Shown: in pieces, positions 3,198 through 45,506 of the stretch
Position numbering within the stretch: position 1 is the stretch's first letter
How the letters are laid out: each line of letters starts with the position of its first letter
Source of the DNA: Escherichia coli
Lineage (GTDB): Bacteria; Pseudomonadota; Gammaproteobacteria; Enterobacterales; Enterobacteriaceae
Assembly (NCBI RefSeq): GCF_024298765.1
Contig: NZ_CP101210.1
Reading direction: 5' to 3' (one strand)
DNA length: 64,000 nucleotides
Made by a program: the position numbers and the translations under genes
Notes under the pieces: model-generated
Database searches by the model: none
What the model was told of the DNA's origin: nothing
Seen by the model: the letters and a program-made list of their open reading frames with translations, nothing else

Positions 3198-4613
3198 TTA
3201 TTTCGAGTTGCTATTTGAGGTGTCGAACTGCTGTGTCAGATAGCTACTAGTGGAGTTCAGCGAGTTCATTAACACATCTAATTGGGTGAACTGGGCTTTA
3301 TAGCGCGTCATTAAGGTATCGATACGTTCACTGGCTGCGTTGTACTGGTCGGTCAAATTATTCAGCGTTTTGCTGACGCCATCTTTTGCTGCCTGGATTA
3401 TCCCGGTGGAAGAGAGCCAACTGGTCAGGTTGTTACTAATGCCGGTGGTTACCCCAGTACTTTTGCCGTCACCTATAAACATTTCACCGATACCAGCGGC
3501 ATCATTTTTTAGCGCCGTTTGCAGTTTGTCGGTCGCGATTTCCAGCTTGCCGGTACTGGCATCGCTGGTAATGCCAATCTGTGCCAGCGTTTTATAGTTT
3601 GAACTGCTGTGAGTATTGGCGAGCAAGGTTTTAAGCTGAGTCTGGATGGTACGCAGTGTGGAGTCACCGAGTAATGCGCCATTACTGGAGTCCTGACTTT
3701 CAGCTCCGGCATCGACAGCGGTGTATTTGGTTAAGCTGCTGAATGTATCCTGCAATGTGTTATAGGCATCCACCCACGCTTTAACCGCATTTTCAGCTTT
3801 GGATGTGTCTTTACTGATGGTCAGTGTCTGATTACCGGTGGTGACGTCATTCAGGTTGAGGGTGATATCTTCCAGTGAGTCGCTGATAGTGTTACTGCTG
3901 TTTTCAATCTCAACGTTATTGACTGTCAGTTTGGCGTTTTGCGCGGTGACGCTTTCAATCATGCCATTGCTGCTATCACCCGGCGTTCCGTTGTAACCCA
4001 TAAAACTTTCCAGGGCGCTGTCGCCGCTGACGCTAAGTTTCATAGCGTTATTGCTGCCCGTATCGTTAGCGGTGATGGACAGACGATATTCGCCGTTTCC
4101 CACATTGATGATACTGGCGCTGACACCAGCTTTGGCGTTGTTAATGGCATCGCGAATGCCGGAAAGTGACGAGTTACCCGCGCTGATATCAATCGTGACC
4201 GGATCTTTACCGCCGCCTTGTTGGATGGTCAGTACGCTATCGCTGGTGGCGATGGCGGCTTTACTGTCTTTTTGACTATTTTTTGTTGTCAGCGTCTGTG
4301 CCTGCGCCAGTTGGCTAACGCTAATGGTGTATTTCCCAGCAATCGCGCTGCCCGTGGTGGTGGCGCTGAAAGCCGATGAACTGCTGGTGGTTGAGGTGGC
4401 GGTAAATAAATCGGCTTTATTCAGTGCTGTGTTGGCTGTCTGGAAACTCTCTAGTGCACTTTTCAGCGTCCCGTAGGCGCTCAGTTTCGCGGTGTAAGAG
4501 CTTTGCTGTTTTGATATCGGCGTCAGGGTAGATTTTTCTGCCGCCTCCAGACTGTCAAGGATGCTGCTTAAGTCCAGCCCCGACCCAACCCCAAGCGTTG
4601 AAATACTAGCCAT
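3198..4613 (-). CDS. fliD: Flagellar filament capping protein FliD
   Basis: 471-aa ORF, Ser/Thr-rich, conserved N- and C-termini, divergent from fliC. Confidence 0.9.
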   Translation of the reverse strand: MASISTLGVGSGLDLSSILDSLEAAEKSTLTPISKQQSSYTAKLSAYGTLKSALESFQTANTALNKADLFTATSTTSSSSAFSATTTGSAIAGKYTISVSQLAQAQTLTTKNSQKDSKAAIATSDSVLTIQQGGGKDPVTIDISAGNSSLSGIRDAINNAKAGVSASIINVGNGEYRLSITANDTGSNNAMKLSVSGDSALESFMGYNGTPGDSSNGMIESVTAQNAKLTVNNVEIENSSNTISDSLEDITLNLNDVTTGNQTLTISKDTSKAENAVKAWVDAYNTLQDTFSSLTKYTAVDAGAESQDSSNGALLGDSTLRTIQTQLKTLLANTHSSSNYKTLAQIGITSDASTGKLEIATDKLQTALKNDAAGIGEMFIGDGKSTGVTTGISNNLTSWLSSTGIIQAAKDGVSKTLNNLTDQYNAASERIDTLMTRYKAQFTQLDVLMNSLNSTSSYLTQQFDTSNSNSK

Positions 4614-4657
4614 ATAGTTTCCTTAATCATGCGACGTGTATAGAACGAATACCGGGG

Positions 4658-4684
4658 TTATCGGCGTAAGCGGGGTAAAGTTTA
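4658..4684 (-). promoter_or_regulatory. Sigma-28 (FliA) class III promoter for fliDST
   Basis: On the minus strand TAAA-N15-GCCGATAA, matching the sigma-28 consensus, upstream of fliD. Confidence 0.5.
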
Positions 4685-4757
4685 CGATTTATTTTTTGCC
4701 TTAATGGCACGAACAGCAACGAGGAAGGGGAGTATTTCGACCGCTAGAAAAAAATTC

Positions 4758-4784
4758 TAAAGGTTGTGAGTGACCAGACGATAA
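4758..4784 (+). promoter_or_regulatory. Sigma-28 (FliA) class III promoter for fliC
   Basis: TAAA (4758-4761), 15-nt spacer, GACGATAA (4777-4784), about 75 bp upstream of the fliC ATG. Confidence 0.5.
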
Positions 4785-4860
4785 CAGGGTTGACGGCGAC
4801 GAAGCCGAAGGGTGGAAGCCCAATACTTAAACCGTAGACTTGAAAACAGGAAAATGAATT

Positions 4861-5910
4861 ATGGCACAAGTCATTAATACCAACAGCCTCTCGCTGATCA
4901 CTCAGAACAACATCAACAAAAACCAGTCTGCGCTGTCGACTTCTATCGAGCGCCTCTCTTCTGGTCTGCGTATTAACAGCGCTAAAGATGACGCCGCGGG
5001 CCAGGCGATTGCTAACCGCTTTACTTCTAACATCAAAGGTCTGACTCAGGCCGCACGTAACGCCAACGACGGTATTTCTCTGGCGCAGACGGCTGAAGGC
5101 GCGCTGTCAGAGATTAACAACAACTTGCAGCGTATTCGTGAACTGACCGTTCAGGCCTCTACCGGCACGAACTCTGATTCCGACCTGTCTTCTATTCAGG
5201 ACGAAATCAAATCCCGTCTTGATGAAATTGACCGTGTATCTGGTCAGACCCAGTTCAACGGTGTGAACGTGCTGTCGAAAAACGATTCGATGAAGATTCA
5301 GATTGGTGCCAATGATAACCAGACGATCAGCATTGGCTTGCAACAAATCGACAGTACCACTTTGAATCTGAAAGGATTTACCGTGTCCGGCATGGCGGAT
5401 TTCAGCGCGGCGAAACTGACGGCTGCTGATGGTACAGCAATTGCTGCTGCGGATGTCAAGGATGCTGGGGGTAAACAAGTCAATTTACTGTCTTACACTG
5501 ACACCGCGTCTAACAGTACTAAATATGCGGTCGTTGATTCTGCAACCGGTAAATACATGGAAGCCACTGTAGTCATTACCGGTACGGCGGCGGCGGTAAC
5601 TGTTGGTGCAGCGGAAGTGGCGGGAGCCGCTACAGCCGATCCGTTAAAAGCACTGGATGCCGCAATCGCTAAAGTCGACAAATTCCGCTCCTCCCTCGGT
5701 GCCGTTCAAAACCGTCTGGATTCTGCGGTCACCAACCTGAACAACACCACCACCAACCTGTCTGAAGCGCAGTCCCGTATTCAGGACGCCGACTATGCGA
5801 CCGAAGTGTCCAACATGTCGAAAGCGCAGATTATCCAGCAGGCGGGCAACTCCGTGCTGTCTAAAGCCAACCAGGTACCGCAGCAAGTTCTGTCTCTGTT
5901 ACAAGGCTAA
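4861..5910 (+). CDS. fliC: Flagellin (short central variable domain, 349 aa)
   Basis: Conserved flagellin N-terminus (MAQVINTNSLSLITQNNINKNQSALSTSIERLSSGLRINSAKDDAAGQAIANRFT) and C-terminus (NRLDSAVTNL...QVPQQVLSLLQG). Confidence 0.9.
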   Translation: MAQVINTNSLSLITQNNINKNQSALSTSIERLSSGLRINSAKDDAAGQAIANRFTSNIKGLTQAARNANDGISLAQTAEGALSEINNNLQRIRELTVQASTGTNSDSDLSSIQDEIKSRLDEIDRVSGQTQFNGVNVLSKNDSMKIQIGANDNQTISIGLQQIDSTTLNLKGFTVSGMADFSAAKLTAADGTAIAAADVKDAGGKQVNLLSYTDTASNSTKYAVVDSATGKYMEATVVITGTAAAVTVGAAEVAGAATADPLKALDAAIAKVDKFRSSLGAVQNRLDSAVTNLNNTTTNLSEAQSRIQDADYATEVSNMSKAQIIQQAGNSVLSKANQVPQQVLSLLQG

Positions 5911-5928
5911 TGGCCTTAACCTGCCTGA

Positions 5929-5951
5929 CCCCGCTACCGGCGGGGTTTTTT
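5929..5951 (+). terminator. Rho-independent terminator after fliC
   Basis: GC stem CCCCGC / GCGGGG followed by a T-run (ccccgctaccggcggggtttttt). Confidence 0.6.
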
Positions 5952-6073
5952 CTGCCCGCAATTTACCGGTAACCCCCAAATAACCCCTCATTTCACCCAC
6001 TAATCGTCCGATTAAAAACCCTGCAGAAACGGATAATCATGCCGATAACTCATATAACGCAGGGCTGTTTATC

Positions 6074-6793
6074 GTGAATTCACTCTATACCGCTGAAGGT
6101 GTAATGGATAAACACTCGCTGTGGCAGCGTTATGTCCCGCTGGTGCGTCACGAAGCATTGCGCCTGCAGGTTCGACTGCCCGCGAGCGTGGAACTTGACG
6201 ATCTGCTACAGGCGGGCGGCATTGGGTTACTTAATGCCGTCGAACGCTATGACGCCCTACAAGGAACGGCATTTACAACTTACGCAGTGCAGCGTATCCG
6301 TGGCGCTATGCTGGATGAACTTCGCAGCCGTGACTGGGTGCCGCGCAGCGTGCGACGCAACGCGCGTGAAGTGGCACAGGCAATAGGGCAACTGGAGCAG
6401 GAACTTGGCCGCAACGCCACGGAAACTGAGGTAGCGGAACGTTTAGGGATCGATATTGCCGATTATCGCCAAATGTTGCTCGACACCAATAACAGCCAGC
6501 TCTTCTCCTACGATGAGTGGCGCGAAGAGCACGGCGATAGCATCGAACTGGTTACTGATGATCATCAGCGAGAAAACCCGCTACAACAACTGCTGGACAG
6601 TAATCTGCGTCAGCGGGTGATGGAAGCCATCGAAACGTTGCCGGAGCGCGAAAAACTGGTATTAACCCTCTATTACCAGGAAGAGCTGAATCTCAAAGAG
6701 ATTGGCGCGGTGCTGGAGGTCGGGGAATCGCGGGTCAGTCAGTTACACAGCCAGGCTATTAAACGGTTACGCACTAAACTGGGTAAGTTATAA
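6074..6793 (+). CDS. fliA: Flagellar sigma factor sigma-28
   Basis: 239-aa sigma-70-family protein with GTG start, region 2 and region 4 HTH, fliAZ operon context. Confidence 0.9.
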   Translation: MNSLYTAEGVMDKHSLWQRYVPLVRHEALRLQVRLPASVELDDLLQAGGIGLLNAVERYDALQGTAFTTYAVQRIRGAMLDELRSRDWVPRSVRRNAREVAQAIGQLEQELGRNATETEVAERLGIDIADYRQMLLDTNNSQLFSYDEWREEHGDSIELVTDDHQRENPLQQLLDSNLRQRVMEAIETLPEREKLVLTLYYQEELNLKEIGAVLEVGESRVSQLHSQAIKRLRTKLGKL

Positions 6794-6838
6794 CGTCAGT
6801 AAATGCCGCACTTTAACTTTGACTACCAGGAGTTCTTA

Positions 6839-7390
6839 ATGATGGTGCAGCACCTGAAAAGACGGCCATTAAGCCGCTATCTTAAAGACTTTAAACACAG
6901 CCAGACTCATTGCGCGCATTGCCGTAAATTACTCGATCGCATTACCCTCGTTCGCGACGGCAAAATAGTGAATAAAATCGAGATTTCCCGCCTGGACGCG
7001 CTGCTTGATGAAAATGGCTGGCAAACGGAACAAAAATCATGGGCGGCATTGTGCCGATTTTGCGGTGATTTACATTGCAAAACGCAGAGTGATTTTTTCG
7101 ATATTATCGGCTTTAAGCAATTTCTTTTTGAGCAAACTGAAATGAGCCCAGGTACGGTGCGTGAATATGTCGTTCGTTTGCGCCGTTTGGGGAATCATCT
7201 ACACGAGCAAAATATTTCCCTCGATCCGCTGCAGGACGGTTTCCTTGATGAAATCCTCGCCCCGTGGCTGCCCACCACCAGCACCAACAATTACCGCATC
7301 GCATTACGGAAGTATCAACACTATCAGCGTCAAACGTGTACCGGACTTGTGCAGAAATCCTCCAGCCTGCCTGCTTCTGATATATATTAA
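6839..7390 (+). CDS. fliZ: Regulator FliZ
   Basis: ORF 6803-7390; the internal Met (MMVQHLKRRP...) gives the 183-aa K-12 length; downstream of fliA. Confidence 0.75.
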   Translation: MMVQHLKRRPLSRYLKDFKHSQTHCAHCRKLLDRITLVRDGKIVNKIEISRLDALLDENGWQTEQKSWAALCRFCGDLHCKTQSDFFDIIGFKQFLFEQTEMSPGTVREYVVRLRRLGNHLHEQNISLDPLQDGFLDEILAPWLPTTSTNNYRIALRKYQHYQRQTCTGLVQKSSSLPASDIY

Positions 7391-7477
7391 ATAAGAATAA
7401 GATGTAGCGGAGTTGTTTTTGTGTTTACAAACAATGGCTCTACACTGCAAACAGACATAACAACATTCGGGGTAAAT

Positions 7478-9369
<1,892 letters not shown>

Positions 9370-9383
9370 CTCCGGGAACGCTC

Positions 9384-10052
9384 ATGCAAGAAAGTATACA
9401 ACTGGTTATTGATTCCTTGCCGTTCCTGCTGAAAGGGGCTGGGTATACGCTGCAACTCAGTATCGGCGGCATGTTTTTTGGCTTACTGCTCGGGTTTATT
9501 CTCGCGCTGATGCGCCTGTCGCCAATCTGGCCCGTGCGCTGGCTGGCGCGTTTTTATATCTCTATTTTTCGTGGTACACCGCTCATCGCACAACTGTTTA
9601 TGATCTATTACGGCCTGCCGCAGTTTGGTATCGAATTAGATCCCATTCCGTCAGCAATGATTGGTCTGTCGCTCAACACTGCCGCCTATGCTGCCGAAAC
9701 GCTGCGCGCCGCCATTTCTTCTATTGATAAAGGTCAGTGGGAAGCAGCTGCCAGTATTGGTATGACGCCATGGCAGACTATGCGTCGCGCGATTTTGCCA
9801 CAGGCGGCGCGGGTGGCGTTGCCGCCGCTGTCGAACAGCTTTATCAGCCTGGTAAAAGATACGTCGCTGGCCGCGACAATTCAGGTGCCGGAGCTGTTCC
9901 GTCAGGCGCAGTTGATTACCTCGCGCACGCTGGAGGTGTTCACCATGTACCTGGCGGCTTCGCTCATCTACTGGATCATGGCGACAGTATTATCGACGTT
10001 GCAGAACCATTTTGAGAATCAACTTAATCGCCAGGAGAGAGAACCAAAATGA
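9384..10052 (+). CDS. tcyL: Cystine ABC transporter permease
   Basis: 222-aa polar amino-acid ABC permease with multiple TM segments; operon with tcyN. Confidence 0.85.
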   Translation: MQESIQLVIDSLPFLLKGAGYTLQLSIGGMFFGLLLGFILALMRLSPIWPVRWLARFYISIFRGTPLIAQLFMIYYGLPQFGIELDPIPSAMIGLSLNTAAYAAETLRAAISSIDKGQWEAAASIGMTPWQTMRRAILPQAARVALPPLSNSFISLVKDTSLAATIQVPELFRQAQLITSRTLEVFTMYLAASLIYWIMATVLSTLQNHFENQLNRQEREPK

Positions 10053-10801
10053 GTGCCATTGAAGTTAAGAACCTGGTGAAAAAATTTCACGGTCAGACGG
10101 TGCTGCACGGTATCGACCTTGAGGTAAAGCCTGGCGAAGTGGTGGCAATTATCGGTCCGAGTGGTTCCGGCAAAACCACGTTGCTACGCAGCATAAATCT
10201 GCTGGAACAACCGGAAGCGGGAACTATCACCGTTGGCGATATCACTATTGATACTGCACGTTCATTAAGTCAGCAAAAATCGCTGATTCGCCAGTTGCGT
10301 CAGCACGTCGGGTTTGTCTTCCAGAACTTTAATTTGTTTCCGCATCGTACGGTGCTGGAAAACATTATTGAAGGGCCGGTGATCGTCAAAGGCGAACCGA
10401 AAGAAGAGGCCACGGCGCGCGCTCGCGAGCTGTTGGCGAAAGTTGGGCTGGCCGGTAAAGAAACCAGCTATCCACGTCGTTTGTCTGGCGGTCAACAGCA
10501 ACGTGTTGCGATTGCACGTGCGCTGGCAATGCGTCCTGAGGTGATTTTGTTTGACGAGCCAACGTCGGCGCTGGATCCAGAGCTGGTGGGCGAAGTCCTG
10601 AACACCATCCGTCAGCTGGCGCAGGAAAAGCGCACGATGGTGATTGTGACGCACGAAATGAGCTTTGCCCGGGATGTTGCGGACCGGGCGATTTTTATGG
10701 ACCAGGGGCGGATAGTCGAGCAGGGGGCAGCAAAAGCGTTATTTGCCGATCCCCAGCAGCCTCGCACCCGCCAGTTCCTCGAGAAGTTTCTGCTGCAATA
10801 A
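10049..10801 (+). CDS. tcyN: Cystine ABC transporter ATP-binding protein
   Basis: Walker A GPSGSGKTT, ABC signature LSGGQQQRVAIARAL, Walker B ILFDEPTSALD. Confidence 0.9.
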   Translation: MSAIEVKNLVKKFHGQTVLHGIDLEVKPGEVVAIIGPSGSGKTTLLRSINLLEQPEAGTITVGDITIDTARSLSQQKSLIRQLRQHVGFVFQNFNLFPHRTVLENIIEGPVIVKGEPKEEATARARELLAKVGLAGKETSYPRRLSGGQQQRVAIARALAMRPEVILFDEPTSALDPELVGEVLNTIRQLAQEKRTMVIVTHEMSFARDVADRAIFMDQGRIVEQGAAKALFADPQQPRTRQFLEKFLLQ

Positions 10802-11030
10802 TAAGAAAAAATCAGCCCCGACGATTCACCTGTCGGGGCGGGACGCCATTTCAAGCGTGATAAAACAGCTTAACAAATCAGCATAACTCATTAATAACAT
10901 AAGAGAATGCGATGGCTTGCAAAAGTAATTCATTGCCTGAATAATATAAATTATATATAAATCTTATTTATGTGATAGTTTGAATTATCATTATAAATGA
11001 TACTCACTCTCAGGGGCGTTGCGGTTTACT

Positions 11031-11753
11031 ATGCAGGATACGGATTTTTTCAGCTGGCGTCGCACGATGCTGTTGCGTTTTCAGAGGATGGAGGCCGCAG
11101 AAGAGGTCTACCATGAAATAGAGCTTCAGGCTCAGCAGCTAGAGTACGATTACTATTCGTTATGTGTTCGCCACCCGGTACCATTCACGCGACCTAAAGT
11201 GGCTTTCTACACCAATTACCCTGAGGCGTGGGTTAGTTATTATCAGGCAAAAAACTTTCTCGCAATTGATCCGGTGCTGAACCCTGAAAACTTTAGTCAG
11301 GGCCATTTAATGTGGAATGATGACTTATTCAGCGAAGCACAGCCGTTATGGGAAGCCGCGCGCGCACATGGTTTACGCCGCGGTGTCACTCAGTATTTAA
11401 TGCTGCCAAACCGGGCGCTGGGCTTTTTGTCCTTTTCCCGTAGCAGCGCGCGCGAAATACCCATTCTTAGTGATGAACTGCAATTAAAAATGCAGTTACT
11501 GGTGCGCGAAAGTCTGATGGCTCTGATGCGTTTAAATGATGAAATAGTGATGACGCCAGAGATGAATTTCAGCAAGCGCGAAAAAGAAATTTTGAAATGG
11601 ACGGCGGAAGGGAAGACATCAGCAGAGATAGCGATGATTTTGTCAATCTCTGAGAATACGGTCAATTTCCATCAGAAAAACATGCAGAAAAAAATCAATG
11701 CACCGAATAAGACCCAGGTTGCCTGTTACGCGGCCGCTACTGGCTTAATTTGA
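11031..11753 (+). CDS. sdiA: LuxR-family quorum-sensing regulator SdiA
   Basis: Autoinducer-binding domain plus C-terminal LuxR HTH; MQDTDFFSWRRTML start gives 240 aa. Confidence 0.9.
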   Translation: MQDTDFFSWRRTMLLRFQRMEAAEEVYHEIELQAQQLEYDYYSLCVRHPVPFTRPKVAFYTNYPEAWVSYYQAKNFLAIDPVLNPENFSQGHLMWNDDLFSEAQPLWEAARAHGLRRGVTQYLMLPNRALGFLSFSRSSAREIPILSDELQLKMQLLVRESLMALMRLNDEIVMTPEMNFSKREKEILKWTAEGKTSAEIAMILSISENTVNFHQKNMQKKINAPNKTQVACYAAATGLI

Positions 11754-11819
11754 TCTCTTTTCTTTCTGCGTGCCAGATGCAAAAACCGGCTGAAAGGCAC
11801 GCTATCAGCCGGTTTTATA

Positions 11820-12044
11820 TTACTGACGGTAGGCTTGTTTAATTTGCTTAACCGTTTTGGAAAATACTGCAGCCTGGGTTTCGTCTTCGATCAGCGCAAG
11901 CTGTTTTTCCATCTTTAACATCACGCGGCCCGCGTCAGCTTGTCCCATCGCCTGCAGCATCAGCGTCAGCATCGCTTTCAGGCAGGAGACTTCATTTGCC
12001 AGTTCTTGATTATTCTCGGCAGTAGAAAAATCAGGCGTACTCAT
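11820..12044 (-). CDS. yecF: Small protein YecF
   Basis: 74-aa ORF in the conserved position between sdiA and uvrY. Confidence 0.65.
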
Positions 12045-12502
12045 TTATTTTCCTCGTCATGTTGCAATGAAAATTTGCGGTGAAAAATGTTAAGGCGGCG
12101 GAGTATACCATAAGCTTTGCTAAAAATAGCAGTGGTTGTTTTTTGAGCGTATCGTCAACGGTGCTATTAAATGCGTTAATATAATGACCAATAAATATTT
12201 TTATCATGAATGTTTTTTGCCCGTATTGTTCGGGTTAATTAATGTTACATATTCAGCGGGCTGATTTTCATTTTTGCTGAATAAAGGTAATTTTTGTCAC
12301 ATTTCGTCGCAGGGCTTACTGTGAAACGATCCGGTAAGCCGTTGGTGACGGGCGTGACCATAACTGTGGACAATCGAATTGACAAAAACGAGAGAAAAAT
12401 CGAATACCCACCATTTTTAACGTTTCAAAGTTGCAATAAAAACCGCTAATATACGAATGACTAACTATCAGTAGCGTTATCCCTATTTCTGGAGATATTC
12501 CT

Positions 12503-13159
12503 TTGATCAACGTTCTACTTGTTGATGACCACGAACTGGTGCGCGCAGGGATACGACGCATTCTGGAAGATATAAAGGGTATAAAAGTCGTCGGTGAGGC
12601 ATCGTGCGGTGAAGACGCCGTTAAGTGGTGCCGGACAAATGCCGTTGACGTGGTGCTAATGGACATGAGTATGCCGGGCATTGGCGGTCTTGAGGCGACG
12701 CGTAAAATCGCGCGTTCCACAGCTGATGTCAAAATCATCATGCTTACCGTCCATACAGAAAACCCTTTACCAGCGAAAGTCATGCAGGCCGGTGCTGCGG
12801 GCTACCTCAGCAAAGGCGCGGCTCCGCAGGAAGTCGTGAGTGCGATTCGTTCTGTCTATTCAGGGCAGCGTTACATTGCTTCTGACATCGCTCAACAAAT
12901 GGCGTTAAGCCAGATCGAACCAGAAAAAACAGAAAGCCCATTTGCCAGTTTGTCTGAACGTGAATTGCAGATTATGCTGATGATCACCAAGGGCCAGAAG
13001 GTCAATGAGATCTCAGAACAGCTCAATCTCAGTCCGAAAACGGTGAACAGCTACCGCTATCGTATGTTCAGTAAACTAAACATTCATGGCGATGTTGAGC
13101 TGACTCACCTGGCAATTCGCCATGGTCTGTGTAATGCGGAGACATTATCAAGTCAGTGA
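12503..13159 (+). CDS. uvrY: Response regulator UvrY (BarA partner)
   Basis: Receiver domain ([12 protein letters not shown]...D) plus LuxR-type HTH; TTG start; overlaps uvrC. Confidence 0.9.
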
Positions 13160-14988
13160 GTGATCAGTTTGACGCAAAAGCGTTTTTAAAAACCGTAACC
13201 AGCCAGCCAGGCGTTTATCGCATGTACGATGCTGGTGGTACGGTTATCTATGTCGGCAAAGCGAAAGACCTGAAAAAACGGCTTTCCAGCTATTTCCGTA
13301 GCAACCTCGCTTCGCGCAAAACCGAAGCGCTGGTCGCCCAGATCCAGCAAATTGATGTAACGGTTACTCATACAGAAACCGAAGCGCTGTTGCTGGAACA
13401 CAACTACATCAAACTCTATCAGCCGCGTTACAACGTTTTGCTACGCGATGATAAATCTTATCCCTTTATCTTCCTGAGTGGCGATACCCATCCGCGTCTG
13501 GCGATGCATCGTGGTGCGAAGCATGCTAAAGGTGAATATTTCGGCCCGTTCCCGAATGGCTATGCCGTACGTGAAACACTGGCGCTACTGCAAAAGATAT
13601 TCCCCATTCGCCAGTGCGAAAATAGTGTTTATCGCAATCGCTCGCGTCCGTGTCTGCAATATCAGATAGGGCGCTGTCTGGGACCGTGCGTTGAAGGACT
13701 GGTGAGTGAAGAAGAATACGCTCAGCAGGTCGAGTATGTGCGCCTGTTTTTGTCTGGCAAAGATGATCAGGTGCTTACGCAACTCATTAGTCGTATGGAA
13801 ACTGCCAGCCAGAATCTGGAGTTTGAAGAAGCGGCACGTATTCGCGACCAAATTCAGGCGGTGCGACGCGTCACCGAAAAACAGTTTGTGTCCAATACCG
13901 GCGACGACCTCGACGTTATTGGTGTGGCGTTCGATGCGGGCATGGCTTGTGTCCACGTATTGTTCATTCGTCAGGGTAAAGTGCTCGGCAGCCGCAGCTA
14001 TTTCCCGAAAGTGCCTGGCGGTACGGAACTGAGCGAGGTGGTGGAAACCTTCGTAGGTCAGTTCTATTTACAAGGCAGCCAGATGCGCACCTTACCGGGT
14101 GAGATCCTGCTCGATTTTAATCTTAGCGATAAAACGCTGCTCGCCGATTCCCTTTCAGAACTGGCGGGACGCAAGATTAATGTTCAAACCAAACCTCGCG
14201 GCGATCGGGCGCGTTATCTGAAACTCGCGCGCACCAATGCGGCGACGGCATTAACCAGCAAACTTTCGCAGCAATCTACCGTTCACCAGCGACTGACCGC
14301 GCTTGCCAGCGTGTTGAAATTGCCGGAAGTGAAGCGGATGGAATGCTTTGACATCAGCCATACCATGGGGGAACAAACCGTCGCTTCCTGTGTGGTGTTT
14401 GATGCTAACGGCCCGCTGCGTGCGGAGTATCGACGCTATAACATTACTGGCATCACGCCGGGCGATGATTATGCGGCGATGAATCAGGTGCTGCGTCGGC
14501 GTTATGGTAAAGCCATCGACGAGAGTAAGATCCCGGATGTGATCCTTATCGACGGCGGCAAAGGCCAACTTGCGCAGGCGAAAAATGTTTTCGCCGAACT
14601 GGATGTCTCATGGGATAAAAATCATCCGCTGCTACTAGGCGTTGCCAAAGGAGCAGATCGTAAGGCTGGGCTGGAAACGCTGTTCTTTGAGCCGGAAGGT
14701 GAGGGATTCAGTTTGCCGCCAGATTCTCCCGCACTGCATGTTATCCAGCATATTCGCGATGAATCACACGATCACGCGATTGGCGGGCACCGTAAAAAAC
14801 GGGCGAAGGTCAAAAATACCAGTTCCCTGGAAACCATTGAAGGCGTCGGGCCAAAACGTCGGCAAATGTTGTTGAAATATATGGGCGGTTTGCAAGGTTT
14901 ACGTAACGCCAGCGTCGAGGAAATTGCAAAAGTGCCGGGTATTTCGCAAGGTCTGGCAGAAAAGATCTTCTGGTCGTTGAAACATTGA
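13156..14988 (+). CDS. uvrC: Excinuclease ABC subunit C
   Basis: 610-aa ORF with GIY-YIG N-terminus ([24 protein letters not shown]) and C-terminal HhH. Confidence 0.9.
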
Positions 14989-15044
14989 TGTCTCTGTAGC
15001 AACATAGGGGTAATCTTACTGACAACAGATAGTTACCCGTCATT

Positions 15045-15593
15045 ATGCAATTTAATATCCCTACGTTGCTTACACTGTTCCGTGTCATCCTTATCCCATT
15101 CTTTGTATTGGTCTTTTATCTGCCTGTCACCTGGTCGCCGTTTGCCGCCGCGCTCATTTTCTGCGTCGCGGCGGTGACTGACTGGTTCGATGGTTTTCTG
15201 GCACGCCGCTGGAACCAGAGTACCCGGTTTGGTGCTTTCCTTGACCCTGTAGCAGATAAAGTTCTCGTGGCTATCGCCATGGTGCTGGTAACCGAGCATT
15301 ATCACAGCTGGTGGGTGACCTTACCGGCAGCAACGATGATCGCCCGTGAAATTATTATTTCTGCGTTACGCGAATGGATGGCGGAGTTGGGTAAACGCAG
15401 TAGCGTGGCTGTCTCCTGGATTGGGAAAGTGAAAACCACTGCCCAGATGGTGGCGCTGGCCTGGCTGCTGTGGCGTCCGAACATTTGGGTTGAGTACGCC
15501 GGTATTGCACTTTTCTTTGTGGCTGCGGTACTGACTCTGTGGTCAATGTTGCAATATTTGAGCGCTGCGCGTGCAGATTTGCTTGATCAGTGA
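15045..15593 (+). CDS. pgsA: CDP-diacylglycerol-glycerol-3-phosphate 3-phosphatidyltransferase
   Basis: 182-aa membrane protein with CDP-alcohol phosphotransferase motif (DG...AR...G...LD...DK). Confidence 0.9.
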
Positions 15594-15744
15594 TCGTTTC
15601 GGCGCAATTTTCAGCAAACGATCAAAAGTGGTGAAAAATATCGTTGACTCATCGCGCCAGGTAAGTAGAATGCAACGCATCGAACGGCGGCACTGATTGC
15701 CAGACGATAATAAAATCAAGTGATTAACTGATTGCTTGATGAAT

Positions 15745-15820
<76 letters not shown>

Positions 15821-15874
15821 GTTTAAAAGACATCGGCGTCAAGCGGATGTCTGGCTGAAAGGCCTGAAGAATTT

Positions 15875-15948
15875 GGCGCGTTAACAAAGCGGTTATGTAG
15901 CGGATTGCAAATCCGTCTAGTCCGGTTCGACTCCGGAACGCGCCTCCA
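15875..15948 (+). tRNA. cysT: tRNA-Cys (GCA)
   Basis: 74-nt sequence ggcgcgttaacaaagcggtt...cgcctcca; anticodon loop attGCAaat. Confidence 0.9.
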
Positions 15949-15960
15949 CTTTCTTCCCGA

Positions 15961-16047
15961 GCCCGGATGGTGGAATCGGTAGACACAAGGGATTTAAAAT
16001 CCCTCGGCGTTCGCGCTGTGCGGGTTCAAGTCCCGCTCCGGGTACCA
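15961..16047 (+). tRNA. leuZ: tRNA-Leu, long variable arm; integration target of the prophage
   Basis: 87-nt sequence gcccggatggtggaatcggtagac...tccgggtacca; its 3' half is duplicated at 53405-53459. Confidence 0.9.
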
Positions 16048-16116
16048 TGGGAAAGATAAGAATAAAATCAAAGCAATAAGCAGTGTCGTGAAACCACCTT
16101 CGGGTGGTTTTTTTGT
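15993..16116 (+). repeat. attL: 124-bp direct repeat (3' half of leuZ plus downstream terminator)
   Basis: Identical by eye to 53405-53528; includes the leuZ terminator hairpin gaaaccaccttcgggtggttttttt. Confidence 0.85.
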
Positions 16117-17896: not shown

Positions 17897-19360
17897 ATGG
17901 CAAAAAATAACAATGATAAAATGCGGGCAAAGTATAGGCCGTTCATAAATATATGGGAACATCTTCCTTCTGAGTTCAATGAACTCATCAAGACGTTAAT
18001 GGTGCTGATACGGCAAGGGGAAAATGTGGGAGCTCAGCAAAGGGAGCTTGATTCCATCGAAAACTTCAAACACCTGTTAAGTGGATGGAAGCGGGCGCAA
18101 AGGATCATAGCTGATGAACTCATTATCAGGCTTTCTCAAATCAAGGATCTGGAGTTAGAAAAGAATTGTGCCCATTCAAAAAAGGACTATGAAACAAAGA
18201 AGAAGTGTATACGCAATATTGAAAGGACTAGACTAGAAATTAGGATTTTACGTAGGTGCATTGATTCAATTGTATGGGCGATATTCCGCAATGAACACTC
18301 GTCTATAAGACGGTTACCTATAAATAGAAATACTGACAATCTGACAATATTTAATATACATGATTCAATGGTGGTAGCAGATGAAATCAATGCTGATCCG
18401 ATGGCTATAGCTGTTATCACTGATATTACTACGTTTGTACATACTGGTGATTTACTTGCGTTAATACCTCAGCAAGGCATAACTTTAATTGAAATAAAAA
18501 GTGGTAAGAAAAATATAGAGTTTTCAAAGGCGGCTATGTTCTCAGTGCAAAGTAAATGTCTTCATTTTGATGAGATTTATAGAAAAGACCTTGATAAAAA
18601 TGACTTGAAACACTATGACAGAGCTAAGCGTCAACTTAAAAGAGCTCAAAATGTGATAGATGTCATTGAAACTGGTAAGGGATTTGATAACTTTTTTCAG
18701 TCTCAAGTAACAATTCATGACAGAGATTTTTGTCCCGATTTTTATACAGATAAGATTATTGAGCTTTGGTATGAGATATATAACGGTAAAACTTGGGCGA
18801 TTACTGACATTAATGATTGTTTATTCCTTGGGGCATATATTAATTCTAATATGGGTTTTTGCGGTTTTAATGGATGGATGGAGGTATCTAGAATATCGGG
18901 GAGAGTGTTTAATATTCTTGATAGCTTTTCAGATGCTTTATCACGTCCATTTTTTAGTTTGAACCTACCTGATAAATTGCTTCTGGATATCATTAATGGC
19001 AATCTAATTGTTGTGCTGTGTTTCGATCATCGTCGTTTCGTAGAAAGAGCAAATAAAAAATACCCCGGGATTTATGAGTTATTGGACTTTCCATCTCCGA
19101 AGATTAATCCTATGAGTATGCTTTCCATCAATGGGAAGGGGGTAGTTTCTAGTGTTGATGGACAGAGTGTTTTTATTGGAAATGGTTACGAAACACGGAT
19201 TATTTTTGATCAGCAATATCCAGATAGTCTGATTAAGTGGTCATACCATATGAGTGATCTCAAAAAAAATATTGATAAAAAAAAGCGTAAAATGAAAAAG
19301 GAAACGCAAAGAAAAATAAAAGAGAAAAGAAAACGTAGCAGAAAACAATGCTTAAACTAA
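17897..19360 (+). CDS. Hypothetical 487-aa protein, AT-rich orphan moron between ogr and gpD (candidate accessory or defence gene)
   Basis: Long ORF in a very AT-rich island; RBS GAGAGGA upstream of ATG 17897 (ORF finder starts at GTG 17873); possible PD-(D/E)xK-like motif GD...EIK; Lys/Arg-rich C-terminus. Confidence 0.55.
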   Translation: MAKNNNDKMRAKYRPFINIWEHLPSEFNELIKTLMVLIRQGENVGAQQRELDSIENFKHLLSGWKRAQRIIADELIIRLSQIKDLELEKNCAHSKKDYETKKKCIRNIERTRLEIRILRRCIDSIVWAIFRNEHSSIRRLPINRNTDNLTIFNIHDSMVVADEINADPMAIAVITDITTFVHTGDLLALIPQQGITLIEIKSGKKNIEFSKAAMFSVQSKCLHFDEIYRKDLDKNDLKHYDRAKRQLKRAQNVIDVIETGKGFDNFFQSQVTIHDRDFCPDFYTDKIIELWYEIYNGKTWAITDINDCLFLGAYINSNMGFCGFNGWMEVSRISGRVFNILDSFSDALSRPFFSLNLPDKLLLDIINGNLIVVLCFDHRRFVERANKKYPGIYELLDFPSPKINPMSMLSINGKGVVSSVDGQSVFIGNGYETRIIFDQQYPDSLIKWSYHMSDLKKNIDKKKRKMKKETQRKIKEKRKRSRKQCLN

Positions 19361-42870: not shown

Positions 42871-42909
42871 AATTGTGCAAATTTGTGCACTATTGTGCAT
42901 TTGTATAGT
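42871..42909 (+). promoter_or_regulatory. Iterated TTGTGCA repeats and candidate -10 (TATAGT) upstream of the cargo operon
   Basis: aaTTGTGCAaatTTGTGCActaTTGTGCAtttgTATAGTg: three copies at about 10-11 bp spacing followed by a -10-like hexamer. Confidence 0.4.
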
Positions 42910-42978
42910 GAAAAAAATATAGCAGAAAGTATACTTAGCGCCTTGTGGGCTACGTTAACTTTGCAGGAACATTTGGAA

Positions 42979-44358
42979 ATGAAAAAAATCAATAAAGAAG
43001 ATTCTAAAAGAACCTTTTTACGTGGATGGTTGCGATTTCTTCGTAGCGTTGAGAGAGCTAAGAAAAAAAAGCCTGCGCAAGAGAAAAATGGTAGTCTTCG
43101 TTTTTCCGATGAAACAACTCCTGTCCAAAACCAAGTCGCTACGTTCATTGAAAATATATCGATTATAAAAGAGTATGACTCATCAATTCTTCGTCGTGAC
43201 GCAGAGAAGATATTAATACCTAAATATTTTGACTTATATGACAATCCAGAGAAATCTCTGCTATTTATTAGTGCAGCCACAAAATTAATTGCAAGAGGTA
43301 AATGGAAATCATATATTTTTGATTACAAGAAAAACAAAAAACACTGTCTTGGTCTTGAGTGTCTATTAGGTGTTGCTCTTACAGCAGCAAGGCAAAGTAA
43401 TATAAATTTCAAAGATACGATGATTCAGATTAATGGTATCTACCCTAAAGATGAACAGTATCTTGAAATTATCAGGGATGTCGGGCTTGTAAAAGAGATT
43501 AGTAATGCTGCACCAGGTAAAGTTCTGGACTCTACTGAAGCATCGAAAAAAGCGAATCCGAAGAAACGAATCTTCTCTGCTGATAGTATCGGAAAGGAGA
43601 ATGCTTCTGCCTTTGCCCATGACAGAAAAAATGTCACTGCTGAAAAATTTACCGCATACATAAACGAATGCTTAAATGATCATAATTTAAAACTTGTACA
43701 TGAGGCAGAAAAGCATTTAACTTCCTGCATGGGGGAACTCCTTGATAATGCGGAGCGGCATTGTGGGTTAGAGCAACGCCCACGCTGGTATTTGAGAGGT
43801 TTTGTTAATAATAACGTACGAAACCCCATATGTGAGTTGGCTGTTTTCAATTTTGGGAAAACTATCAGCGAAACTTTTGATAATTTACCTGAGGATCATT
43901 TTTCATTAAGTCAACAAGTTAATCCATACATAAATAAGCATATTAAGAAAAAGGGTATGTTTAAGGAAGGATTAACAACAGTAGCGGCCTTGCAAGGGCG
44001 GGTGAGTTGTAAAAACGAGAAAGAAACTGACAGTTCTGGCACCGGAACAATTGAATTATTGAAGTTATTTCAAGATATGCATGATAATCTTAAAAAAATG
44101 GGAAGAGATATTAAAGGTGGGATAAAAATGACTTTAATATCTGGTAGTACTCATATTAACTTTGATGGATCATATAAATTAAAGCAAAGGTTGGTTAATG
44201 ACGAGGAAAGTGACATTTTTACTTACCCTTTTAATGATGTAGGGCTTGAATCTGAACCGGATCGCAACTATCTTAAGCGTATGAAGGATGCTCGATTTCC
44301 TGGAGTTATGATCAATATTCGTTTTCCTCTACCAGAAAACGCCACCCAGCGAACTTGA
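42979..44358 (+). CDS. Hypothetical protein with C-terminal GHKL-type (histidine kinase/SpoIIAB-like) ATPase domain; candidate defence gene A
   Basis: N-box-like ELLDNAERH, G-box-like DSSGTGTIELL, terminal GG...G...FPLP typical of HATPase_c; AT-rich; RBS AGGAAC before ATG 42979 (ORF finder starts at 42883). Confidence 0.55.
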   Translation: MKKINKEDSKRTFLRGWLRFLRSVERAKKKKPAQEKNGSLRFSDETTPVQNQVATFIENISIIKEYDSSILRRDAEKILIPKYFDLYDNPEKSLLFISAATKLIARGKWKSYIFDYKKNKKHCLGLECLLGVALTAARQSNINFKDTMIQINGIYPKDEQYLEIIRDVGLVKEISNAAPGKVLDSTEASKKANPKKRIFSADSIGKENASAFAHDRKNVTAEKFTAYINECLNDHNLKLVHEAEKHLTSCMGELLDNAERHCGLEQRPRWYLRGFVNNNVRNPICELAVFNFGKTISETFDNLPEDHFSLSQQVNPYINKHIKKKGMFKEGLTTVAALQGRVSCKNEKETDSSGTGTIELLKLFQDMHDNLKKMGRDIKGGIKMTLISGSTHINFDGSYKLKQRLVNDEESDIFTYPFNDVGLESEPDRNYLKRMKDARFPGVMINIRFPLPENATQRT

Positions 44359-44368
44359 GGACAGGTAC

Positions 44369-44713
44369 ATGAAAATGGCTGACATCACCATAGATTTCAA
44401 TAAGTTAGTAAAAGATAGTAACAAGAAACTTTTTGCTGGACGTTCTAATGGGCGCCAGGCCTATGATTACTTTAATATAGGGAAATTTTGCACAACCAGT
44501 AATGATAGATTATATCTATTGATCCCCAAGGGAATTGTTGTATCAAGCTCATACTTTCTAGGTATGCTTGAAACGGTTTTGCCGAAATTTTCTTCGCCTA
44601 GCGAATTTTATAGTCGCACTGTACTTGATGGTCGTGAATATAAAGAAGGTATGCTTTCTGAATTAGATAGAGCTGTAAGGAGAGGCTTACATAAAAATGT
44701 TCCCTTCTTTTAA
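44369..44713 (+). CDS. Small protein, possibly STAS/anti-sigma-antagonist-like; candidate defence gene B
   Basis: 114 aa immediately after the ATPase gene; IVVSSSYFLGMLE resembles the STAS core; very tentative. Confidence 0.4.
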   Translation: MKMADITIDFNKLVKDSNKKLFAGRSNGRQAYDYFNIGKFCTTSNDRLYLLIPKGIVVSSSYFLGMLETVLPKFSSPSEFYSRTVLDGREYKEGMLSELDRAVRRGLHKNVPFF

Positions 44714-45506
44714 AAATATTTTTCAAATCAAAATGACAGCGCTGTCTGTCATTTTTTTTATATTCCCCGCAGCTTGCTCTGTGACAGATTTTTCCAATAA
44801 AGAAAACATTGAATGTAATGAGTCACTTTATCCAAACACGCCTTTTTATATTTCCGATTCAGGACTTAGTGGTATATCATCACCGTTTTTGTTATCCGGA
44901 AACCCGAATGATGGCTTGATGTTTTGTGAAAAGGCAAACGACACCTTTCATAAGTTATCTCTGGCAAGGGATAACAAAAAAGATTTATTTACTAATTATT
45001 TCAAAGATGTTCCAAATTCCTATGATATATATAATATTGTAAAGGTTCCGGAAAATGGTCCAGAGTGGATTTCTATTGGCATCTCTTTATTTGCTTTAGT
45101 TTCATCCTTTGTTATTCCTTGTGTTCAACATAGAAAAGAACGTAAAGAAGCTATTAATGAAGGGTATTGGGTAAGAGAAGTAATTATGCCTAAAATTAAT
45201 GGGTTGGCATTCGATGTTGTGCAAAGTTTTAAAAACTCCATGGCATTATCAGAAGAGGAGTTTCTTAGTGTATTCAGTAATACTCTTTTACCAAAACTAG
45301 GAGAGTTACGGGATTCATTATATTTGTTTAATAGTTTTCCAGAATTAAATGCAGATATTGAAAATCTAGAAAGTATTTGTGACTCCTTGGAGGAAGAAGT
45401 TTCCAATCATATAGACTCGCCTAATGAAATAAGAATTTCTGATATATCAATGTTTCATTCCAAATTAATACAGAAATTAATTTTACTTCATAAGAAGATA
45501 GGTTGA
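44697..45506 (+). CDS. Membrane-anchored protein; candidate defence gene C (possible effector)
   Basis: Overlaps gene B by 17 nt; hydrophobic N-terminus (MTALSVIFFIFPAACS) and a central TM helix (WISIGISLFALVSSFVIPCV). Confidence 0.45.
   Translation: MFPSFKNIFQIKMTALSVIFFIFPAACSVTDFSNKENIECNESLYPNTPFYISDSGLSGISSPFLLSGNPNDGLMFCEKANDTFHKLSLARDNKKDLFTNYFKDVPNSYDIYNIVKVPENGPEWISIGISLFALVSSFVIPCVQHRKERKEAINEGYWVREVIMPKINGLAFDVVQSFKNSMALSEEEFLSVFSNTLLPKLGELRDSLYLFNSFPELNADIENLESICDSLEEEVSNHIDSPNEIRISDISMFHSKLIQKLILLHKKIG

Follow-up and report, generated by a model that had tools for sequence, protein, structure and literature searches.

A native short flagellin of the H4 type in a fliD-fliC cassette of Escherichia coli

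The fliC locus and its expression signals

The window analysed here, a 64-kb stretch of E. coli DNA, carries amyA, fliT, fliS and fliD on the minus strand followed by fliC, fliA, fliZ, tcyJ and dcyD on the plus strand, a gene order that agrees with K-12 and with annotated genomes. The fliC reading frame runs on the plus strand from an ATG at 4861 to a TAA at 5908-5910 and spans 1050 nt, or 349 codons and the stop. These coordinates and the 349-aa length, both proposed in an initial annotation, were borne out by the ORF and by Pfam, which identified the N-terminal helical domain Flagellin_N (PF00669; residues 5-141, E 4.4e-47, 160 bits against a cut-off of 26.6) and the C-terminal helical domain Flagellin_C (PF00700; residues 262-347, E 3.3e-32, 111 bits against a cut-off of 23). 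Both domains, the fliDST/fliC/fliAZ locus and a class-3 promoter motif place the product in the FliC/FljB family of flagellins, and among proteins of solved structure it is closest to the filament flagellins of E. coli K-12, EPEC H6, EHEC H7 and Salmonella, with E-values down to 2e-134. The motif LQRIRELTVQ can be read at residues 89-98. Minus-strand ORFs within fliC (123, 80, 62 and 61 aa) are without support and were taken as chance ORFs.

We found putative expression signals around the gene by motif and consensus matching (Table 1). The promoter-like site upstream of fliC has two mismatches to the sigma-28 consensus TAAAGTTT-N11-GCCGATAA, and a second sigma-28 site precedes fliD on the opposite strand. 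K-12 shares both the locus and this promoter architecture: its two 8-base fliC elements are identical and lie at the equivalent position, despite an intergenic region that is only about 65% identical, and its fliD site, also at the equivalent position, differs by one base. The predicted terminator hairpin downstream of fliC is homologous to the terminator that ends the FliX/fliC transcript in K-12.

Table 1. Positions, strands and supporting evidence for features of the flagellar region and of the nearby prophage
Feature	Position in window	Strand	Evidence or remark
fliD, filament cap, 471 aa, divergent allele	3198..4613	-	Pfam FliD_N, Flagellin_IN, FliD_C
fliD putative sigma-28 promoter, TAAACTTT-N11-GCCGATAA	4658..4684	-	Consensus match, one mismatch; upstream of fliD
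fliC putative sigma-28 (FliA) class-3 promoter, TAAAGGTT-N11-GACGATAA	4758..4784	+	Consensus match; upstream of fliC
fliC, H4 allele, 349-aa flagellin	4861..5910, including stop	+	ORF; Pfam; nucleotide identity to annotated 'flagellin FliC' WP_000079759.1
Conserved N-terminal part, aa 1-175 (N-terminal segments of D0 and D1)	4861..5385	+	K-12 identity; AlphaFold2 helices
Central variable H-antigen-specific region, aa 176-257, predicted small β-domain	5386..5631	+	Not alignable with K-12; AlphaFold2
Conserved C-terminal part, aa 258-349 (C-terminal segments of D1 and D0)	5632..5907	+	Flagellin_C; K-12 identity
fliC putative intrinsic terminator	5927..5955	+	Terminator scan; 9-bp stem with 6 G-C pairs, 3-nt loop, T-run
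Prophage 487-aa low-GC ORF	17897-19357	+	Between ogr and gpD; 'hypothetical protein' WP_038820202.1 in 22AR0750
Prophage Hin/Gin/Cin-like DNA invertase	26369-26974	-	In prophage segment 26369-29135
Prophage alternative tail-fibre C-terminal ORF	27061-28044	+	Adjoins invertase
Prophage tail-fibre-assembly gene	28046-28573	+	Opposed to the next
Prophage tail-fibre-assembly gene	28602-29135	-	Opposed to the preceding
Prophage low-GC (35-37%) ORFs of 491, 114 and 269 aa	42883-45506	+	Between portal gene and replication gene A

Allele identity and the fliD-fliC cassette

The initial annotation had described conserved flagellin termini around a middle much shorter than that of the 498-aa K-12 protein, and BLASTP and Pfam agree with it. 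Compared with K-12 FliC (H48, 498 aa; PDB 8cxm; sequence from NC_000913.3), residues 1-175 are 90% identical, and near-complete identity resumes at about residue 258 and continues through the C-terminal end. Between these parts the window protein has about 82 aa (residues 176-257) and the K-12 protein about 230 aa, and the two centres do not align, which upholds the further claim that this H-antigen allele differs from that of K-12.

Typed through serotype-named genomes and the published gene length, the allele is H4, which is already known. The gene is 100% identical at the nucleotide level to fliC in 'Escherichia coli O104:H4' records (FDAARGOS_348 and FDAARGOS_349), in the ST131 strain JJ1886 and in strain 22AR0750, to which the window is most closely related. 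A record titled 'O25b:H4-ST131' matches the central region of the gene at 100%. WP_000079759.1 is the annotated FliC product in O104:H4, JJ1886 and 22AR0750. For fliC from six H4 strains, Beutin et al. (2005) reported a uniform 1050 bp (349 aa) and 97.6-100% identity, with an H4 flagellin of 36.3 kDa compared to 51.3 kDa and 498 aa for K-12 H48 (PMC548302). The gene studied here has exactly this length, its central identity falls within that nucleotide range, and comparison by way of serotype-named genomes detected no difference from E. coli fliC-H4 (U9-41, AB028472), which has the same length. The comparison with typed fliC alleles that the initial annotation had called for thus returns H4, given the complete identity to H4-named strains and the length equal to that of published fliC-H4.

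To place the allele among E. coli we used a reference set of 5426 complete genomes. Megablast found full-length matches to fliC in 760 of them, 740 at 99% identity or more. A low-stringency search with the central DNA alone (5374-5640) recovered exactly 760 genomes as well, 743 at 99% or above and 17 at 95-99%, and found no match between 65% and 95% in any of the 5426. Because 760 genomes match at 95% or more and none at intermediate identity, the centre is a discrete sequence form.

The flanking genes had also been called K-12-like, which holds for only part of them. Nucleotide identity to K-12, taken mostly from 150-nt bins, was mostly 95-100% in amyA, fliT and fliS, and 98.5% from 5929 to 16116, a stretch that begins at the fliC terminator, includes fliA and reaches leuZ. 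It was 65-78% in fliD, beginning at about 3183, and about 65% in the fliD-fliC intergenic region; the FliD proteins (471 aa here, 468 aa in K-12) are 79% identical. Within fliC, a 5' part at 83-88% and a 3' part at 87-94% enclose the non-alignable centre, and directly 3' of the stop codon 161 nt are present in K-12 only. The likeness to K-12 therefore covers amyA, fliT, fliS and the stretch from the terminator to leuZ, and fails for fliD, the intergenic region and the 3'UTR.

We observed the reverse pattern in comparisons with H4 strains. The window fliD is 99.86-100% identical to fliD of O104:H4, JJ1886 and 22AR0750, and the 2713 bp of fliD, intergenic region and fliC have two mismatches to O104:H4 and one to ST131 JJ1886. 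The outer flanks of both strains, from amyA to fliS and from tcyJ to sdiA, diverge from the window by 1.2-2%, with the fliA-fliZ segment intermediate at 0.3-1.2%. Since one or two mismatches inside stand against 1.2-2% divergence in the outer flanks, the simplest reading is that a 2.7-kb fliD-fliC cassette has been passed among E. coli lineages through homologous recombination. This reading agrees with a published account in which H-antigen forms cannot be aligned with one another and pass from lineage to lineage (PMC7018530), and on it the exchanged unit would be fliD and fliC together rather than fliC by itself. The fliD type of the window occurs in 1322 of the 5426 genomes, which exceeds the count with the H4 centre, and it is therefore common to some other H types.

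The 3' end of the gene departs from K-12 in a further respect. In K-12 the 195-nt FliX (b4827; NC_000913.3 2001912-2002106) is annotated as a fliC 3'UTR, sigma-28-dependent sRNA, and FliX-S, the short form that is active, contains a single REP (PMC10578931). The window has a fliC 3'UTR of about 45 nt from stop codon to terminator end (5911-5955). Absent from it are the 161 nt, most of FliX, in which two REP-like repeats can be read in K-12. The window thus lacks the REP-bearing 3'UTR, about 195 nt long, from which FliX and FliX-S are made, and an Rfam scan of 4400-6300 in evalue mode gave no match. The junction between the fliC end and the short UTR was found in only 1008 of the 5426 genomes. 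Judging from these comparisons, strains with the H4 cassette may lack FliX as described in K-12, which may matter when K-12 flagellar post-transcriptional regulation is extended to clinical lineages.

A short flagellin architecture shared across genera

We modelled the protein with AlphaFold2 from a 26-sequence alignment and obtained a confident D1 and central domain (block pLDDT mostly 79-93) with low values at the termini. Low confidence at flagellin termini is expected with D0 outside the filament. The model contains N-terminal helices at 4-40, 45-100 and 106-129 together with a β-hairpin, and C-terminal helices at 261-312 and 318-348. In a second model limited to residues 140-275, the centre forms a compact domain of four main β-strands with short bridges, and residues 180-249 reach a pLDDT of 92-97. 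Foldseek matched the whole model to flagellin filament structures. Among the top matches for the whole model, and the best match for the isolated H4 central fragment, was Salmonella Typhimurium FliC lacking D3 (PDB 9iwq, Δ204-292), which like the protein predicted here consists of D0, D1 and a single outer domain.

A whole-protein search returned many H4 variants together with full-length homologues that are 349-365 aa long and 73-89% identical. The sources of these short flagellins are 'Enterobacteriaceae bacterium FGI 57', Pluralibacter gergoviae, Pantoea species including Pantoea eucrina, and Enterobacter hormaechei/asburiae. Such FliC/FljB-family flagellins of other Enterobacterales can be aligned over their full length, centre included, with small insertions and 40-77% identity over residues 140-275, a span that takes in conserved flanks. 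The centre aligns throughout the 26-sequence alignment, with V207, L209, Y212, Y222, A223, G230 and V246 conserved.

Searches with the centre by itself yielded less. A 93-aa central query against 1.84 billion representatives recovered gene fragments, repeat proteins and one flagellin, P0003, that is truncated and frameshifted and has a related centre; of these, the compositionally biased T/A/V/G-rich tandem-repeat proteins P0004, P0006 and P0008 were rejected as homologues of the H4 centre. The same query against a 5.8-billion-protein index returned fragments only. The poor yield likely reflects clustering that hides H4 behind other flagellin representatives. As a separate observation, a 351-aa E. 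coli flagellin (P0047) has a mosaic centre, the first half of which resembles the P0003-type short flagellin while the second half is identical to H4, and this suggests recombination inside the central region.

A gene 149 aa shorter than that of K-12, with the difference wholly central, could be read as a longer E. coli allele that recently lost an internal segment and may be impaired in function, and a passage of PMC7018530 that cites Kuwajima 1988 describes engineered central deletions that leave functional flagellins. Against this stand the full-length short homologues of 349-365 aa in Pluralibacter, Pantoea and Enterobacter, whose alignable centres argue that the short form is no deletion product. 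The central DNA, moreover, has no relative at 65-95% identity in other E. coli fliC types, the centre is predicted to be a compact β-domain at high pLDDT (92-97), and published H4 genes are uniform in length at 1050 bp (PMC548302). We regard a truncation origin as effectively refuted. The short form is instead an established architecture found across genera and native to this allele, rather than a truncation of a long E. coli allele. Taken as a whole, the reading that the chromosomal fliC is of the H4 form, encodes a native short flagellin and sits in a recombining fliD-fliC cassette is contradicted by nothing we found, and we hold it to be very nearly certain.

Predicted function, flagellar type and a neighbouring prophage

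In flagellins the termini make up the coiled-coil D0/D1 core from which the filament is built, including the D1 face recognised by TLR5, and the centre is surface-exposed and defines the H antigen. By analogy with the family, the 349-aa fliC product (36 kDa) would leave the cell by the flagellar type III system and serve as the filament subunit. Residues 1-175 and 258-349 would form the helical D0/D1 core that polymerises into the filament and carries the TLR5-recognised surface, and the 82-aa centre would fold into a single small β-domain, lie at the surface of the filament and act as the H4 antigenic determinant. Transcription would start from the FliA (sigma-28) class-3 promoter and stop at the hairpin downstream of the gene. 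We infer filament assembly, a surface-exposed centre, antigenicity and motility from family knowledge and the literature, in which cloned fliC-H4 assembles into filaments, even alongside H48 flagellin in K-12 (PMC548302), and in which the H4 flagella of ST131 are comparable to H1 and H7 in their support of motility, adhesion and invasion, and elicit more IL-10 (PMC4637896).

Possession of fliC-H4 need not coincide with expression of the H4 antigen. Every H17-typed strain examined by Beutin et al. carried fliC-H4 (PMC548302), strains reported as H17 that carry fliC-H4 were shown to express the H4 antigen, and flnA, at a different locus, encodes the H17 flagellin under unilateral phase variation (PMC3378880). 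The source strain might likewise express another type encoded elsewhere, or might be non-motile. Against this, tblastn found no second flagellin gene within the 64-kb window, and fliC, its promoter, fliA, fliZ, fliD, fliS and fliT are all intact. We consider expression of a different antigen, or loss of motility, highly improbable in this strain, and either would leave the identity of the gene at 4861-5910 unchanged.

With fliC of the H4 form, the source strain can be assigned to flagellar type H4, which helps serotype prediction. Two lineages of medical importance, ST131 O25b:H4 and O104:H4, have this type; at 1.2-2% divergence, the outer flanks of the window match neither exactly. A length of 349 aa is standard for H4, so the original observation of a short flagellin is correct but ordinary. 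Modest additions to it are the exchange of fliD and fliC as one unit, a short architecture common to several genera, and the non-conservation of FliX in the cassette.

Farther downstream, the window contains a P2-like prophage (about 16117-52600) that is absent from K-12 and lies beside tRNA-Leu (leuZ), downstream of pgsA-glyW-cysT. Its closest relative, in 22AR0750, is 98-99.4% identical over the common parts. The prophage carries two low-GC cargo islands, and none of their four ORFs (491, 114, 269 and 487 aa) has a match in Pfam or PADLOC. The three ORFs at 42883-45506 occupy a position, between the portal gene and gene A, that we take to be a variable cargo (defence) hotspot of P2-like phages, and they are candidates for anti-phage or accessory cargo; at the same position the 22AR0750 prophage has ead/Ea22, ParM and partition genes. 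That prophage also has no counterpart to the segment 26339-30503, in which the DNA invertase and the tail-fibre genes lie (Table 1). Together, the invertase and the tail-fibre genes probably constitute an invertible host-range switch.
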